Assembly (NCBI GenBank): GCA_038886535.1
Contig: JAVZXS010000001.1
Coordinates: forward strand, 64,001-128,000
DNA length: 64,000 nt
From: Candidatus Micrarchaeia archaeon
Lineage (GTDB): Archaea; Micrarchaeota; Micrarchaeia; CABMEP01
Direction of reading: 5' to 3'
In this document: one piece after another, positions 30,001-36,000 of the stretch
Numbering within the stretch: position 1 is the stretch's first letter
Layout of the letters: each line of letters starts with the position of its first letter
Program-made: the position numbers

Positions 30001-33000
30001 GTTCATAATATTTTCAGTTGATACTAAGTTTGTACATAAGAAGATAGGTAGAATAAATAAGGAAGTTGAAATGATAATAAAAAATAGCAGTAAGTCAGAA
30101 AAGGCTAAAAGAATAGCAGATTTGTTTGTTATTCCAGAACCAACAACTGATGATACAACAAAGTTTATAATATCAGACAATTCATTACTATTCAAGTATA
30201 AAGATAAACGAATGCAATTAAAGATAAAAGAACTTTTGGAGTCAAGGAGATCTGAAGAACATTCTGATTAATAATAGCATCTGATTAATAATAGCAGATT
30301 TTAAGGTGTTTTAATGAAAATAAAGCTAACTATAGAAATGCCTTTTAATAATAAAAAAGAATTAGATGACGCATATAAATCTTTGCAGCCAGAACTTGAA
30401 TTTAAGGGAAGAGCAAAGATAAGTCTTTCAAAATCAGATAAAACTTTAATAATATTAATAACCGCTGATGATCTTGCTTCTCTTCATGCAGCAGTTGGGT
30501 CTCAACTTAGAGCTTTAAAAGTTATTAAGGGGGTTCAGAACTTTGCAGAAGAGTAAATAAAAGATAGAATGATATAAAGTAGGTAAAGATTATTAAATTT
30601 CATAATATATAAGTAATTGGAATGTTTGTAAGCAGTTCATATTAACGAGGTGTTTTTATGGAAGAAGACAGACAATTGGAATTGCAGTCACTGCAGCAAC
30701 AGCTTCAGATACTCTCTCTTCAGAAGCAACAGATGAAAATACAGTCTGATGAGATAGACCACGCTCTAAAAGAGATAGAATCTGCAAAAGGAGACATATA
30801 TCGGTTGGTAGGTCCTATCCTTCTTAAATCAACAAAAGAGGAAGTGGTAAAGGATCTTAATGACAAAAAGGCAACATTGGAAGCAAGAATACAGATATTA
30901 GAAAAACAGGAAGAAAGAATAAAGAAGCAATTACAAGAATCAAAGAAAAAATAAGTAAAACAAGCAAAGAAACTACAAATAAGCAACAAACAAAAAGATT
31001 AAATCCAATTTTAATTTGTTAAATTTGTCAATATAAAAATTTCTTTTCTATCTTTCCATTTTTTATTTTTATTCCATCTCTCTTTAGGAGTTCAATCTTT
31101 TTCTTCACACCGCCCTTTGCAGAATATCCTCCAACCTCACCATTGCTTTTAACAACTTTGTAGCAAGGAATTTTTTCAGGATTTTTATTTCTTCTCATTA
31201 GATTTCCAACAACACGCGCTGCTTTATTGTTTCCGGCAAGCTCAGCCAGCCTTTTATAGGTTATTACCTTACCTTTTGGTATCTTTCTAAGGATAGAGTA
31301 AACTCTTTCTTTAAATTTAATTCCATTATCGTTATTTCTAATTTCTTTATTTTTCATATTTGTCATATTTTATCTAGTTATAGATATCAACTAAACAGAT
31401 TTTAAAACTTATACACCAATATCTTTTCAGTGAGCAAATGCCATTAGACTCAGGAATTGTTGCATATATATTAACACCTATTCTTCTTTTTATAGGTATT
31501 CTTCTTTTTTGGTTTATTCAGTCTGCTGTTTTGCTTTTTGTAGCAAGGAGATTTATATTTCCATCGCTATATAAATACAGATTGACAGAATGGTTTATTA
31601 TTGAATTTGCGATTGCTATACATGAATTATCCCATTTCTTTGCAGCATTTTTTACTGGTTCTGAGATAAATTTAAAAGAATCGTTCGTAACATCAAAAGG
31701 AGGAAGAATAGCAGCAAGATCCTCTCAATCTATAGGAGGCTGGATCTCAATAATAATAGCTGCATTCGCACCAGCCTTTATCCCGTCATTGGTTCTTTTT
31801 ATCTTAAGCATAATCTTATTTCAAGTAAATATACCGATGTATAAAGTATTGGATGCTAAGCCAAACATAGGTCTTGATTCCTACATCTCTATTCTGTCAT
31901 CAATAGTTCTTCCCTTGTTTAATTTATTATTATCATTAATAATCTCACCTTCACTATTTTCGATTATTTTCATCTACTTTATGATAGTATTCTCTCTTAC
32001 TTCTGCTCCAAGTGAAGATGATTGGAAGGCAAGCTATTCTGTTCTCTTTTCATTCCCAGTAATCCCCTTGCTTATAGTCTTTATACTTCTGAACTTTGTA
32101 TCAATACAGTTCAACTTTAATCTCCTTCTATTCATTTTGACAATTCTTTCCATTGTTTTTTTATTCGTATCATTCGGTATTTTGTTTAATTTAATGTTTG
32201 TTATTCTGATAAAATTGCTTGAGAGGGTGTGGATTTCAATATCAGCGCAGATAAGAAAGTCATTAAAGATTTACGATTGAATGATTCCTAGAGTGATCGG
32301 GATGGTAGAAAAGGTTTCAAGAAAAAGTAAAAAAATAAAAGTAGGATGGTTCACATTCACATGCTGCGAAGGTTGTGCTATTATATTCATAGAGCTTTTG
32401 AATGACAGATTTAAGGAATGGTCTGAAAAGATTGAATTCAGACATTTTAAAATCCTCAAATCTAAGAATGATTTAGACGAACTTGATCTTGCGATCGTAG
32501 AAGGCGCAATATCAACAAAAGACGAGGTTAATCTTTTGAAAGAAATAAGAGAAAAATCAAAATTTGTTATGGCTGTAGGTTCTTGTGCTCTTACAGGCAT
32601 GCCAGCAGGATTAAGGAACAATTTCGACAATGAGAAAAAGAAAGAAATAGAGCAAATATTGAAAAAATTTGATTACTTGGATTCAGTTGAGCCAGTTTCA
32701 AAGTTTATCAGAGTTGATTTCAGAGTACCTGGTTGTCCAATGGATGGAAATCAATTTGTAAAAGAACTTTCTTCCTTCATCGAACAACATTCATGATTTC
32801 AAATAACTAAAGGTGATTATATGCATAATATTTCAGATATATCTATAAAAGATTTGAGCAAAATTGAAGGACATGCAAGTGTAGAAATAAAAATAAAAAG
32901 CGGAAAAGTGGAAAGTGCTAAATTGAAGATAGTGGAAAATAAACGATTTTATACTCAGGCAATAAGAGGAATGAGTATAGATAATATATATTCTATAGTT

Positions 33001-36000
33001 TCAAGAATATGTGGTACATGCAGCATTTCCCATATGACATGCTGCATAGAAGCGATTGAAAATTCATTAGGGATCGAGCCATCAGAACAAACAATGAAGC
33101 TAAGACATCTTTCAATGTTCGGTACAATTCTCAGGGACCATGCAATGCATTTATACATGTTTTGTCTTCCAGATATATTCAATAAAGATTCCATATTGGA
33201 TTTTGACAAGAAACAAATGAAAATAGTTGAAAACGGCCTTAAGGTAAAAAAAGCAGCAAATAATCTTGCAACCATTGTTGCAGGAAGAGCGGTACATGCG
33301 CTTTATCCTAGGATTGGAGGTTTTTCATCTGTACCAAGCAAGGATTCAATTAAAAATTCAATTTCAGAGCTTGCTTCTGTAAGAGAACACGTCATTGATC
33401 TTGTAGAACTATTTTTTGATTCTCAATTTGAATTTTTCTGCAGTGCAAGGAACGTTGCATTAGTGGATAAAAAATTTAACTTTGTAGAAGGTAGGATACA
33501 GGATTCCACTGGATTGAAAGTGGAGGAAAATGATTTTCCAGAGCATCTGCATAGAGTTGTCATTCCTTATTCGCAAGCAACAGGTTTTAAGTTCAAAGGT
33601 GAGGAATATATTGTCGGTTCACTGTCAAGGTTAAATCTTAATCTACAAAATATGCATAGTGATACCTTAAGAGATTTATCTGAGTTTACATCTGTATTTC
33701 CTTCAAAAAATATATTTCATAACAATCTTGCACAGGCTATAGAAATGTTACATTGCATAGATGCCTCAATAGAGATACTAGAAAATAGCAACTTTAAGGA
33801 AGAAAAATTACCAGATCTAACCAAATATAAAGAAAAAAAGGGAAAGGGCATTGGTGTGGTAGAAGCGCCGAGAGGCACTCTGTATTATGAGTTAAATATA
33901 GATAAAGGAATTGTAAAAGATGGATTGCTTGTCATTCCAACAGCCCAGAATCAGGTTAATATGGAAAGAGACATCAAAGAATTAGTGCAACAAAACCTAG
34001 ACGAAGGATTAGATAGGCATACTATTGAACACAACATAGAGAAACTAATAAGAGCATATGATCCATGCATGTCTTGCGCAAGTCACTTTTTAAGGGTTAG
34101 ATGGAGCTAAAGTTTCATTTAATAATTTTTCTATCTCCTTAATTGCCTTTCTTTTTTTATATCCCATCGGAATAGCGAATATATTTATTTTCTTTATTTT
34201 TCCAATTTTTTTCATTATTTTCAATGTCATTCCAAGATCAAAATCATGCATCGAACATCTTCTATTCTCACATATTTCATCAATATTAGTTATCAATCTT
34301 ACATTCTCTACTCCATCTACAGTATCGATTATGTTGATTTCGTTTTCATCTTCTATTTCATCTGGGTATTCCGCAGGAATAAATTTAATCATTGGGAATT
34401 TTTTCTCTAACTCTGGAATTATTTCAAGAGGCAAGCTATCATTTTTTATTAGCGGATTTCCAAAGCAATAGACCTTCAAATGCTCATTCATTATTTCACT
34501 CTAAACAAAAACAAATAAAATAGGAAAAATAAATTAAGACGAAACAAAATTAAAATAAATTGAAAATAAAGGTCACCAATTTTTATCAATTTAAAGGTCA
34601 TCAATTATATCTTTCTTTTTCCTTTGTCTTCGATATGTATGCAGTTGACAGGGCATGCCTCTGCAGCATCCTGATTGCATGCTATATCTTTAACTTCCAA
34701 TTCAAATACATTTCCATTCTTCTTAGCTCCAATCAATTCAGACTTGCCATCGCTCGCCATTTTCCAGTATTTTGAACATACTGCTGCGCATGTACCACAT
34801 CCAATGCATGCATCTCTATCGTGTATTATTTTTGCCATTATAGCACCTCTATCAATCCAATTAAATTAAGCTTTTATCATTATTTTTAACAGCTTCCTTT
34901 AAAACCTTAACGTTTTCATTATCCTTTCCGAATGATTCTTCAAGTATTTCTATAATCGTTTTTTGTTTTATTTTCAAATGTTTATTTTTGATTATCTTTC
35001 CTAAGAGATAGATATTAGAATACATATTACTGCCTGTAATTTGCTTTGTAATTTCAGATGCAGGATATATAAAAATCTCTTTAATGTGCGGTTTGATCCT
35101 TGTTTTGATTTCATCCAAAGAAGGATAGCTTATATTTTCTATATCCATCCTGGTAGGTTTGATCTGAATAGAATCTGAATATACAATCGTTTTTTCTTTA
35201 TTACAATATTTTATTAATGATTGTGTCTCAAGCGGCTCTAATGCTATTATTATGTCTGCAGACATATTTGGCACTATGGTTGTTTTCACGTTTTTTCCAA
35301 TCCTTAAGTGGAATTCAGTATGTCCAAATCTTTTGGCCAAACCATGGAGTTCGCTAGTCATAACGTTGTTTCCTTCTCTTTGAGCAGCCAATGAAATAAG
35401 GCTTCCTAGCGTCATTACTCCTTGTCCCCCAACACCGGTTATTATTATATTGATCTCTTCATTTTCATTTTTTTCGTTTTTATTGTTTTTAGATCTTCCA
35501 TTTTCTTTTCCATTCGGCATTTTTAACCACCACAAATTAAGCTTTTTTATCTTCGCTTATTTTCGGTTTAATTGCACTATATGGACATATCTGCGAGCAT
35601 ACAGTGCATCCCCAACACATGTCCTCTGAGATATAGTATTTATTCTCCTTTTTATCATAATGAATTGCAGGACATCCATACTCTATACATCTTCCACATT
35701 TCTTACATAGCTCTTCATGAATTTGATAGATAGGTACTTTTATCTTGTTTTTTCTTGCGTTTCTCATAAACATTAATCTGCAAGGTTGCCTATAAACAAC
35801 AACCCTTACTCCTTTCTTTTCTTTAACTGCCTTCATTATTTCTTGAGATTTCTTAGTGTCAAAAGGATTAACTACATATACATCTGCACCCATTGCCCTG
35901 CAAACTTCTTCTATTGATATCTTAGGTGCGCTTTCACCACATCTTATTCCAGTTCCAGCATGCGGTTGTTGTCCGGTCATAGCTGTTGTGCCATTGTCAA

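Follow-up and report, generated by a model that had tools for sequence, protein, structure and literature searches.

How does a [NiFe]-hydrogenase obtain its metal centre in an archaeon in which the genes that build this centre are not found? The question is raised by a locus of Candidatus Micrarchaeia archaeon, lying in the window analysed here, that is, a stretch of 64,000 nucleotides (positions 64,001 to 128,000) of contig JAVZXS010000001.1. The initial annotation described two hydrogenase subunit genes with no gene to build or insert the metal centre, and left three explanations, namely an unknown route, supply by a host, or a protein working without the cofactor. Sequence alone cannot separate these three.

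Gene organization of the locus

The genes concerned are as follows (positions in the window).

31438..32280, plus strand: polytopic membrane protein, M50/M50B-like, 280 aa, with an invariant HExxH; lineage-specific
32281..32796, plus strand: [NiFe]-hydrogenase small subunit, short form, 171 aa (PF01058)
32821..34110, plus strand: [NiFe]-hydrogenase large subunit, 429 aa, related to group 3b (PF00374)
34090..34491, minus strand: putative HybD/HycI-type maturation endopeptidase, diverged, 133 aa (sub-cut-off profiles, fold)
34605..34838, minus strand: ferredoxin, single-cluster, 77 aa (Fer4_15, 2.7e-16)
34861..35535, minus strand: IorB, indolepyruvate:ferredoxin oxidoreductase beta-like subunit (PF01558, 1.7e-27)
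35537..37390, minus strand: IorA, indolepyruvate:ferredoxin oxidoreductase alpha subunit (TIGR03336)

On the plus strand the M50B-like membrane protein is followed by the short small subunit and the large subunit; its stop codon abuts the start of the small-subunit gene, and it is the first gene of the hydrogenase operon. On the minus strand the order is IorA, IorB, ferredoxin and endopeptidase, the last being convergent with the large-subunit gene and sharing 21 bases with its end. The flanks of the hydrogenase genes are fully assembled, the window being part of a longer contig, and they carry other genes; a related locus of the same family (L054) sits in a 359-kb contig. IorA scores 698.6 bits against TIGR03336 (IOR_alpha), above the equivalog cut-off of 650.9, and the adjacent IorB matches IOR_beta (8.9e-34) with 117 bits, below the cut-off of 205.8. 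The Ior genes lie downstream in five of the six lineage loci, the contig of the sixth stopping short of them. The ferredoxin carries the motif CxxCxxC...CP and is found between IorB and the endopeptidase in all six lineage loci (86-99% identity), so this 77-aa protein is a candidate redox partner of the hydrogenase.

In comparison with two congeners, dN/dS was 0.09 for the membrane protein, 0.08-0.10 for the small subunit, 0.03-0.08 for the large subunit and 0.11-0.12 for the endopeptidase, that is, 0.03-0.12 throughout. Purifying selection acts on each of the four.

The two hydrogenase subunits

Both subunit genes were confirmed as [NiFe]-hydrogenase genes by Pfam matches above cut-off, the large subunit scoring 95.6 bits against PF00374 (cut-off, 25.8) and the small subunit 85 bits against PF01058 (4.6e-24). 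The relationship to sulfhydrogenase alpha and delta reported in the initial annotation agrees with the best NCBIfam models for the two subunits. The large subunit matches ShyA over its full length (1.1e-71) with 242 bits against an equivalog cut-off of 700, and the HydA model with 213 bits against 880; its closest solved structures are T. kodakarensis HyhL (5yxy) and the alpha subunit of P. furiosus SHI (E about 8e-56).

The two CxxC pairs of the large subunit proved to be kept in the alignment. Cys64 and Cys67 lie within RICGTCSISH (L1, residues 62-71, fitting RxCGxCxxxH), and Cys416 and Cys419 within DPCMSCASH (L2, residues 414-422, fitting DPCxxCxxH); L1 and L2, including all four cysteines, are identical in every aligned related sequence that covers them. 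A C-terminal tail of seven residues follows His422. In addition, all 69 sequences compared keep R351 and P373-(T/S)374-x-Q376-N377; the cyanides are, we assume, hydrogen-bonded by two of the kept residues, the Arg of the PRG motif and the Thr/Ser of the PT motif. The large subunit's active site is therefore predicted to be intact. As a broader measure, 165 columns were taken that do not vary among 16 sequences whose loci, in Nitrososphaerales and CPR, count as Hyp-bearing (12 of these sequences are from genomes tested HypD-positive), and the window's large subunit retains 136 of these columns, the median of other DPANN sequences being 140.

The small subunit matches positions 3-154 of 261 of the HydD delta model (88 bits against an equivalog cut-off of 500) and aligns to residues 11-160 of 266 of the P. 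furiosus SHI delta subunit. Its N-terminal ligand segment is CCEGC, and all 27 sequences compared share C102 and G151-C152-P153; the 171-aa protein appears to hold the proximal-cluster domain alone. It had been called truncated. The length is correct, but a relative was found by tblastn at 75 of 76 related loci, and the small-subunit ORFs called there (at 65 of 74 loci) are all short, 105-213 aa and mostly 152-193 aa. A short small subunit characterises the clade as a whole and is not a truncation.

An adjoining maturation endopeptidase

The ORF at 34090-34491 is, judged by sequence and predicted fold, a diverged HybD/HycI-type maturation endopeptidase. Its profile matches are below cut-off, both for PF01750 (E 0.008, 16.5 bits; cut-off, 23) and for TIGR00072 (E 0.0017, 18.4 bits; cut-off, 47.45). 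PF01750 was matched at E up to 0.1 by all 34 members of the endopeptidase clade, in which G11, N12, D18, D56 and H82 are invariant (34 of 34 sequences). D18, D56 and H82 correspond, as we take it, to the metal site Glu16/Asp62/His93 of E. coli HybD. When an AF2 model (pLDDT 82.8) was compared with the PDB by Foldseek, the top 11 matches were all HybD/HycI (E 1e-5 to 2e-3, TM 0.53-0.65). The protein resembles the HybD/HycI/HoxW endopeptidases (PDB 1cfz, 2kml, 5ija, 2e85 and 5zby) in fold, in the three invariant acidic/His residues and in the position of its gene adjoining the large subunit. It differs from them in its shorter length (about 130 aa), its low identity (11-22%) and its scores below the Pfam and NCBIfam cut-offs. 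Of 76 related loci, 67 have a homologue, and at 52 its distance from the end of the large subunit is no more than 300 bp.

Proteases of this class are said, in work attributed to Theodoratou (2000), to recognise nickel as their signal. Because a diverged maturation endopeptidase adjoins the hydrogenase, its presence argues that metal insertion still takes place. Consequently, of the earlier claim that no gene here builds or inserts the centre, the part on the last step fails, while the absence of HypA to HypF from this genome stands.

Search for the cofactor-building genes

The genome of the window is 88% complete in 40 contigs, and the family, which comprises seven hydrogenase-bearing genomes including this one from two genera, is represented by unclosed bins of 81-92% completeness. 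Profile searches of the window's genome gave no candidate for HypD or HypE, no match for HypB, at most chance-level matches for HypC and HypA, and for HypF only matches confined to Sua5, acylphosphatase and Kae1 pieces. HydG, the HypC-HydE fusion (fusion HMM) and DUF6390/c11 (custom HMMs) were not found in it either. Within the family, HypD and DUF6390 (PF19927) were found in none of eight genomes, and c11, HypC and HydG in none of seven each. HypE and HypF were searched for in the window's genome and in five of the six other hydrogenase-bearing genomes; these five gave no HypE, and all five gave at most partial, never full-length, matches to HypF. HypD, HypE and HydG, where present in relatives, score at E of 1e-94 or below, so such genes are readily seen, and HydG as a positive control gave 521-562 bits in five of five fusion-bearing Micrarchaeia.

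Thus the genomes of the family encode none of three known or candidate sets for making and delivering Fe(CN)2CO: HypCDEF; HydG with the HypC-HydE fusion; and EamA with DUF6390/c11 and HypC. Since no known or suspected builders are encoded, the iron-cyanide-carbonyl centre must come from elsewhere or by an unknown route.

Maturation modules in Micrarchaeia and in the hydrogenase clade

HypD had been reported from none of 41 Micrarchaeia genomes; its absence does not hold in a larger sample, where canonical HypD is present in 10 of 401 genomes. The earlier counts for the large subunit (27/41, 17/28 and 8/10) come from a different sample than the one used here. The 136 hydrogenase-bearing Micrarchaeia comprise 9 with HypD, 63 with DUF6390, 24 with a compact DUF6390 relative, 25 with HydG and/or a HypC-radical-SAM fusion, 4 unclear cases and 11 with none of these modules. 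The window's family accounts for 7 of these 11. Most other Hyp-less Micrarchaeia have HypC-domain modules, either EamA with DUF6390/c11 or a HypC-HydE-like fusion with HydG, which are candidate non-Hyp routes within the class; in sister Micrarchaeia they go with hydrogenases of this same clade, whereas neither was found in the window's family. Our literature search found no paper on EamA+DUF6390/HypC or HypC-HydE+HydG modules beside [NiFe]-hydrogenases. Every other Hyp-less group of Micrarchaeia retains at least a HypC-type domain, and the window's family none, an observation that tells against supply from outside; because those groups all keep such a domain, it suggests that a HypC-type carrier is normally needed.

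Outside the class, HypD and HypE were found above cut-off in 11 of 11 Nitrososphaerales and one CPR genome having this hydrogenase clade, where the hyp genes adjoin the hydrogenase, and in none of 38 small DPANN-type genomes. The Hyp-linked sequences nest within the DPANN ones in a quick tree, and the window's family forms a separate deep branch (SH-aLRT 98%). Judged by the co-occurrence with Hyp, this type of hydrogenase probably uses the canonical cofactor elsewhere. The puzzle of a hydrogenase without cofactor-building genes holds family-wide and has grown sharper. The initial annotation missed the adjoining endopeptidase, the alternative modules of the class and the Hyp-linked Nitrososphaerales.

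Comparison with known hydrogenases

The nearest sequence relatives of both subunits are cytosolic group 3b enzymes of the tetrameric, NAD(P)-coupled HyhBGSL type, P. furiosus sulfhydrogenase I and T. kodakarensis Hyh (9nez, 9e15 and 5yxy), with which the window's enzyme shares L1 and L2 and a very short extension beyond the histidine of DPCxxCxxH. Unlike them, its small subunit lacks the C-terminal domain of about 100 residues, presumably the carrier of the other two (medial and distal) clusters. Its scores fall far short of equivalog level (242 bits, the cut-off being 700), and its genome lacks Hyp genes. Beta (FeS) and gamma (FAD/NAD(P)) diaphorase subunits were seen neither among the neighbours in the window nor among the recurrent neighbour families of related loci, no profile search aimed at them having been made. 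For these reasons the label of NADPH-coupled 3b, usually given to DPANN enzymes according to the available text of PMC8561730, is doubtful.

The "hyd2" hydrogenases of CPR bacteria are closer in build. In the available text of Jaffe et al. 2020 (PMC7304191), they are described as 3b-related and of two subunits, the small one consistently truncated (mean 164 aa), with beta/gamma not nearby, a hypC-like family nearby and a function called uncertain; in that text, whose scope does not extend to archaea, "maturation" has no occurrence. As far as that description goes, the window's module is like hyd2 in having only a large and a short small subunit (171 aa against the mean of 164) and unlike it in that the family has no hypC-like gene, an M50B-like partner being in its place. 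Our clade tree, built without the published hyd2 sequences, contains one CPR sequence (L115) and three CPR-like sequences, and the window's enzyme probably belongs to a "hyd2-type" clade.

We know of no [NiFe] counterpart to the maturase-free archaeal [FeFe]-hydrogenases. For the latter, the available text of Greening et al. 2024 (PMC11216029) gives a full HydEFG set in 5 of 130 genomes, proposes an alternative maturation pathway and reports activity only after semisynthetic maturation. On that account both are cases of a hydrogenase retained in reduced archaeal genomes without accepted maturases, but the window's enzyme is of another superfamily with another cofactor.

Possible sources of the metal centre

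The reading that we tentatively prefer is that the locus encodes a working, selected, minimal [NiFe] module of the "hyd2-type" with the standard centre, whose iron unit may be supplied from beyond the cell's known genes, the likeliest supplier being a host or partner on which this archaeon with its reduced genome depends. The large subunit would still receive a standard NiFe(CN)2CO centre, and the protease would cut the seven-residue tail once nickel is inserted. Electrons would pass via the single proximal cluster to or from the 77-aa ferredoxin reduced by IorAB, and surplus reducing power would leave as H2; gene order alone suggests both the coupling to ferredoxin and the direction in which H2 would flow. 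The weakest step is the outside supply of the Fe(CN)2CO unit, which is proposed because the family encodes none of the three known or candidate routes. To our knowledge, there is no precedent for uptake of this unit or of a maturation factor from another cell.

An unrecognised endogenous route, in which proteins outside the known maturase families make or insert the iron unit, is somewhat unlikely. The membrane protein is one possible agent. This protein lies immediately upstream of the small subunit at all six genome loci and at all seven metagenome loci that extend past the gene, and its hydrogenase-linked homologues go down to 43% identity. It is confined to the lineage (15 homologues in 5.8 billion proteins searched), is under purifying selection, and has invariant residues H62 E63 H66 and E193 D195 W196. 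A sister lineage has a c11-like HypC-domain gene in the same position (L142:1379-1930), the enzyme is paired elsewhere with other membrane proteins (EamA at 25 loci, CorA at 5), and several non-Hyp modules already exist in Micrarchaeia. The protein has no Pfam match at E up to 0.01, and its resemblance is to M50-like proteases (weak M50 matches in 2 of 15 members and M50B in 1 of 15; closest Atlas clusters, M50B-like 0.94 and M50 0.93). However, such a fold hints at neither CN/CO chemistry nor iron carriage. It could be a mere membrane anchor or an unrelated protease, and neither a source of CN/CO (HypE/F, HydG) nor a HypC-like carrier was found in the window's genome.

It is improbable that the enzyme works without NiFe(CN)2CO, with nickel only, plain Fe/Ni or another metal, perhaps in something other than efficient H2 turnover. 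Two points favour this reading: the builders of the diatomic ligands and the HypC-type carrier were not found in any of the seven family genomes (HypE/F tested in six), and the family branches off separately and deeply within the clade. Against it, the presumed cyanide-bonding residues are retained, retention of the Hyp-clade columns is rated as not below that of other DPANN sequences, and an endopeptidase of nickel-dependent type persists together with a cleavable tail.

Loss of Hyp/HydG-type genes from the bins, by incompleteness or in poorly binning islands, is very unlikely to explain the pattern. All the genomes are metagenome bins, and two of the other genomes without a module belong to genera or families with DUF6390-bearing members. 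However, the seven tested gene families are missing from all seven family genomes of both genera (from six for HypE/F), and in relatives only a few kb separate the maturation genes from the hydrogenase, where here the assembled flanks hold other genes. Finally, a functionless, decaying relic, suggested by the absence of the expected helper genes, is hardly credible and is already contradicted by the selection data, and the reading frames are unbroken and the motifs do not vary among lineage members of 65-97% identity.

Whatever the source of the iron unit, a tiny symbiotic archaeon with a reduced genome keeps a conserved hydrogenase and its putative finishing protease without the genes that build the cofactor.

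The hydrogenase module and its subunits

The [NiFe]-hydrogenase of the window belongs to a constrained four-gene module that carries its own maturation protease, and the Micrarchaeia family around G000, the genome that holds the window, is devoid of all the known and candidate builders of the Fe(CN)2CO unit. The two ORFs that the initial annotation assigned to the hydrogenase are both present, and the genes of the region are as follows.

31438-32280, +, membrane protein, 280 aa, polytopic, its stop abutting the small-subunit start
32281-32796, +, NuoB-type small subunit, 171 aa (PF01058, 85 bits)
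32821-34110, +, [NiFe] large subunit, 429 aa (PF00374, 95.6 bits)
34090-34491, -, protease, 133 aa, convergent to the hydrogenase genes
34605-34838, -, ferredoxin, 77 aa
34861-35535, -, IorB
35537-37390, -, IorA
37543-38691, -, protein of 382 aa with an N-terminal membrane helix

The large subunit matches the ShyA model over its full length (E 1.1e-71), yet far below the equivalog cut-off, and the nearest solved structures are HyhL of T. kodakarensis and the alpha chain of P. furiosus sulfhydrogenase I (E about 8e-56). Its metal-binding cysteines are intact, as had been noted, with Cys64 and Cys67 in RICGTCSISH and Cys416 and Cys419 in DPCMSCASH, and a 7-residue tail that contains FLRVRW follows the latter motif, which ends at His422. 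The best NCBIfam model for the small subunit is the sulfhydrogenase delta subunit, the match being confined to model positions 3-154 of 261, and the alignment with the P. furiosus delta chain (266 residues) covers residues 11-160 only. The small subunit had been called truncated; its shortness is instead a trait of the clade. A scan of species-representative genomes gave 76 loci with large-subunit relatives at 47-97% identity, from Micrarchaeota, Aenigmatarchaeota, Iainarchaeota, Woesearchaeota, Nanoarchaeota, one CPR bacterium and about twenty Nitrososphaerales. A small subunit was found by tblastn in 75 of them, and ORFs of 105-213 aa, mostly 152-193 aa, occur in 65/74 related loci. C102 and G151-C152-P153 are invariant in 27/27 sequences, and the N-terminal ligand segment takes a CC form or a D..C form across the clade, both being found in the window's protein. 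The neighbour cluster c20 is no real gene family and consists of small-subunit genes read on the opposite strand. The CPR "hyd2" enzyme is such a short form, with a mean small-subunit length of 164 aa; in the parts of the paper that deal with it, no beta or gamma subunits lie nearby, a hypC-like family does, and the function is called uncertain (Jaffe et al. 2020, PMC7304191). In the relevant sections of a DPANN genome paper that includes two of the sampled genomes, the enzymes are labelled group 3b, NADPH-coupled (PMC8561730).

The protease and its neighbours

The claim that no gene here builds or inserts the metal centre has to be amended, for the ORF at 34090-34491 is a maturation gene. It scores below the cut-offs (PF01750, 16.5 vs 23 bits; TIGR00072, 18.4 vs 47.45), and its clade matches PF01750 at E<=0.1 in 34/34 members, with G11, N12, D18, D56 and H82 invariant. 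The top 11 PDB matches of its AlphaFold model (pLDDT 82.8) are HybD/HycI endopeptidases; this comparison of folds was needed, as the best hit of the family profile among PDB sequences, to a hydrogenase peptidase, had an E value of only 0.14. A homologue is detected by tblastn in 67/76 related loci and lies within 300 bp of the end of the large subunit in 52/76. Taken together, homology, predicted fold and linkage indicate that the last maturation step, removal of the tail, is encoded in the window. In proteases of this class the step recognises bound nickel, a view that the title of Theodoratou 2000 supports.

The order IorA, IorB, ferredoxin and protease is kept through the ferredoxin in 6/6 loci of the lineage and includes Ior in 5/6, and IorA is above its equivalog cut-off. 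Electrons would pass from IorAB to the ferredoxin, on to the single proximal cluster and finally to H2. A predicted complex of small subunit, large subunit and ferredoxin gave scores of 0.14, 0.57 and 0.15. The 382-aa gene (cluster c45), which immediately precedes IorA and has the same orientation, is conserved in three or more lineage loci and may share a transcription unit with IorA.

Absence of the cofactor builders in G000 and its family

The reported lack of Hyp genes holds for HypD, HypE and HypB, no candidates for which occur in G000, with controls detected in hydrogenase-bearing model genomes. HypC and HypA gave chance-level stretches only, the weak HypA matches being zinc ribbons inside long or very short ORFs, and the HypF matches are merely Sua5, an acylphosphatase and Kae1. 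Custom HMMs of the neighbour clusters EamA, DUF6390, c11, HypC, HypD, HypE, HypF and the HypC-HydE fusion found none of these in the six-frame translation of G000, and HydG is absent from it. Two weak radical-SAM matches (C5:9959-11365 and C3:84313-85572) are not HydE or HydG, and by eye they look like Elp3-type and B12-binding-domain enzymes. A HypC-like regular expression (Cys...Gly-x-Val...GD-x-V-x-x-H) had one irrelevant match in G000 and was too insensitive, recovering only 10/18, 5/11 and 6/14 known members. The family as sampled is likewise negative for HypD (0/8) and DUF6390 (0/8), its hydrogenase-bearing genomes for c11, HypC and HydG (each 0/7) and for HypE (0/5), and HypF is represented in 5/5 genomes only by t6A-enzyme and acylphosphatase pieces.

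Maturation gene sets across the Micrarchaeia

Among 401 Micrarchaeia genomes, PF00374 is above cut-off in 140, and in 136 the best match has E<=1e-7. The unpublished genome G085 enters only the denominators and the list of weak PF00374 matches, and the figures are counts free of statistics because the kin are not independent.

Maturation gene sets in the 136 Micrarchaeia genomes with PF00374 at E<=1e-7
Canonical HypD (E 1e-115 to 1e-158): 9/136
DUF6390 (zero overlap with HypD): 63/136
c11, a full-length compact DUF6390 relative (hhalign probability 98.5%): 24/136
HydG and/or a fusion of HypC with a HydE-like radical-SAM enzyme: 25/136
Unclear: 4/136
None of HypD, DUF6390, c11 and HydG/fusion: 11/136

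The 11 genomes of the last group are the 7 hydrogenase-bearing ones of the window's family, from 2 genera, together with G011, G014, G103 and G122.

DUF6390 is distributed in DPANN and CPR, usually beside an EamA permease, and 63/64 DUF6390-bearing genomes also have the hydrogenase. In the DUF6390 model (pLDDT 93.6) the C-terminal domain is HypC-like (VIA-align Z 5.8, rmsd 1.9 Å, 71/71 residues of 2z1c), with an invariant Cys and an invariant His aligned to the conserved pair of HypC; the N-terminal helical domain had no Foldseek or VIA-align match. A cassette of EamA, DUF6390 or the 171-aa c11, and sometimes canonical HypC adjoins the hydrogenase in 29/56 DPANN-type loci, for example at L121:9747-11644, L112:5646-7555 and L107:5221-7031. 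Fusion ORFs of HypC and HydE, of which 15 were seen (424-457 aa), are exemplified by L132:430-1689 (-), where a HypC domain with the start MCYAIPG (PF01455) is joined to a HydE-like part (TIGR03956, 224 bits). In Hyp-less Micrarchaeia (L128-L133) the fusion and the [NiFe]-hydrogenase genes run divergently. In 5/5 fusion genomes tested, the same contig holds a complete HydG (521-562 bits) beside the fusion, and HydG occurs in 10 further genomes.

Relatives accompanied by Hyp proteins

For 50 of the 76 loci the underlying genomes were searched for HypD and HypE. Both are above cut-off in the same 12, namely 11/11 Nitrososphaerales and a CPR Falkowbacteria genome, and in 0/38 small DPANN-type genomes. 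The Nitrososphaerales loci carry hypE, hypD, hypC and hypF on the flanks of the hydrogenase. A quick IQ-TREE of 71 rows, midpoint rooted and leaving out the fragments L068, L079, L087 and L127, placed 15 Nitrososphaerales sequences in one clade (100) nested among Aenigmatarchaeota, and the window's lineage, made up of 6 rows together with L057 and L117, on a separate branch (98). Since kin of the same clade have Hyp, this enzyme type is compatible with the canonical machinery, and it is accompanied by it in free-living archaea.

These MAGs of the ammonia-oxidiser lineage thus hold a two-subunit hydrogenase, a protease and a full hyp cluster. A class II aldolase is found in the same loci (L062, L064, L065, L069, L071, L072, L080, L082, L084, L086, L094 and others), as are two small uncharacterised genes (c8 and c9). 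A 2023 review of the Nitrososphaerales, in the sections on hydrogenases, speaks only of Ehr complexes and of the Nitrosocaldus 3b enzymes, which have four subunits (PMC10432482), and a literature search for a Nitrososphaerales hydrogenase with hypD gave Hyp biochemistry papers only. Five taxonomic labels look wrong: L066, L078 and L097, given as Gammaproteobacteria, fall beside the CPR sequence in the hydrogenase tree, L091 and L111, given as Methanosarcinales, fall beside Nano-/Woesearchaeota sequences, and the genomes behind L066, L078, L097 and L091 are of 0.7-1.3 Mb. The genome of L074, which is without HypD, encodes a 341-aa AIR-synthase-family protein (G418:C17:10618-11442) with 112 bits on the HypE model, above the usual PurM/ThiL cross-matches (about 50-60) and below the cut-off of 251.6.

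Source of the iron unit

That the hydrogenase functions without encoded Fe(CN)2CO machinery, through a host-derived unit or maturing proteins or through a wholly unrecognised route with the lineage-specific M50B-like membrane protein of 31438-32280, is in our judgement evenly balanced. Supply of the iron unit from outside the cell is ranked first and is put forward tentatively, as the best single explanation for an enzyme whose metal site would still be the canonical one.

An endogenous route outside the recognised families, perhaps involving the M50B-like protein, comes second and is rather doubtful. This protein has only 15 homologues among 5.8 billion proteins, with HExxH (H62, E63, H66) and PSEDDW invariant, faint Pfam matches to M50 in 2/15 members and to M50B in 1/15, and M50B-like nearest Atlas clusters (0.94). 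It directly precedes the small subunit in 6/6 genome loci and in 7/7 sufficiently long metagenome loci, down to 43% identity, and in the sister lineage (G033, locus L117) the small subunit is still preceded by an intact c11-like gene of 183 aa.

Aenigmatarchaeota loci (L060, L061, L067 and L070, about 5750-8000) have an acylphosphatase, a small HExxH-type PF18894 "phage metallopeptidase" and CorA directly upstream of the small subunit, a second instance of a metallopeptidase-like gene and a membrane protein ahead of the hydrogenase. The stretch upstream of the operon (28468-31366) is part of an archaeal exosome/prefoldin neighbourhood (Rrp42-like RNase PH, Brix-like, Pcc1 and prefoldin beta) and includes a divergent 112-aa gene with an O6-methylguanine-DNA-methyltransferase DNA-binding domain, which adjoins the membrane-protein gene in 6/8 metagenome loci. 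A 296-aa Arg/Pro-rich ORF in L057 is an ORF-calling artefact; tblastn revealed the membrane-protein, ferredoxin and protease genes that it had masked.

A metal site different from the canonical one is ranked third and seems improbable, as the active site gives no sign of relaxation. All 69 sequences share R351, P373, Q376 and N377, and each has T or S at position 374. Sixteen sequences from Nitrososphaerales and CPR loci that count as Hyp-bearing have 165 invariant columns in common; 136 of these are kept in the window's protein, 130-136 in family members and a median of 140 (range 126-159) in other DPANN sequences. That binning missed the maturation genes in G000 (1.14 Mb, 40 contigs, 88% complete) and the rest of its family is still less probable and ranks fourth, as the absences recur through the family. 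A relic, ranked last, is hardly credible: against two congeners the large subunit has a dN/dS of 0.03-0.08, the small subunit 0.08-0.10, the protease 0.11-0.12 and the membrane protein 0.09. Of sequencing runs with 31438-34838, two DNA runs, which may be its source, and no RNA run were listed.

Significance

A 2025 review, in its sections on maturation, assigns NiFe(CN)2CO to all [NiFe]-hydrogenases, holds six Hyp proteins necessary and never mentions HydG (PMC12134894). Against this six-Hyp rule, a whole family retains the hydrogenase and the protease that finishes it, both strongly selected, and encodes no builder at all, and three different non-Hyp gene sets lie beside the same enzyme in sister lineages. 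The archaeal [FeFe]-hydrogenases are a parallel case, HydEFG being reported in 5/130 genomes and an alternative pathway proposed in the main account of Greening et al. 2024 (PMC11216029). A search outside subscription journals and supplements brought up no publication that deals with Hyp-less [NiFe]-hydrogenases in DPANN/CPR, with DUF6390 or with HypC-HydE fusions.

DPANN "group 3b, NADPH-coupled" hydrogenases are, in the pertinent passages of genome papers, routinely counted as H2 metabolism (PMC8561730, PMC11094006). For such genome annotation it matters that no diaphorase subunits appear among the recurrent neighbours of the clade's loci and that the window's family is without an encoded means of activation either. 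The question of Hyp-independent or host-dependent maturation becomes testable on a four-gene operon, and host supply, if true, would be the first case of a metalloenzyme matured across organisms.
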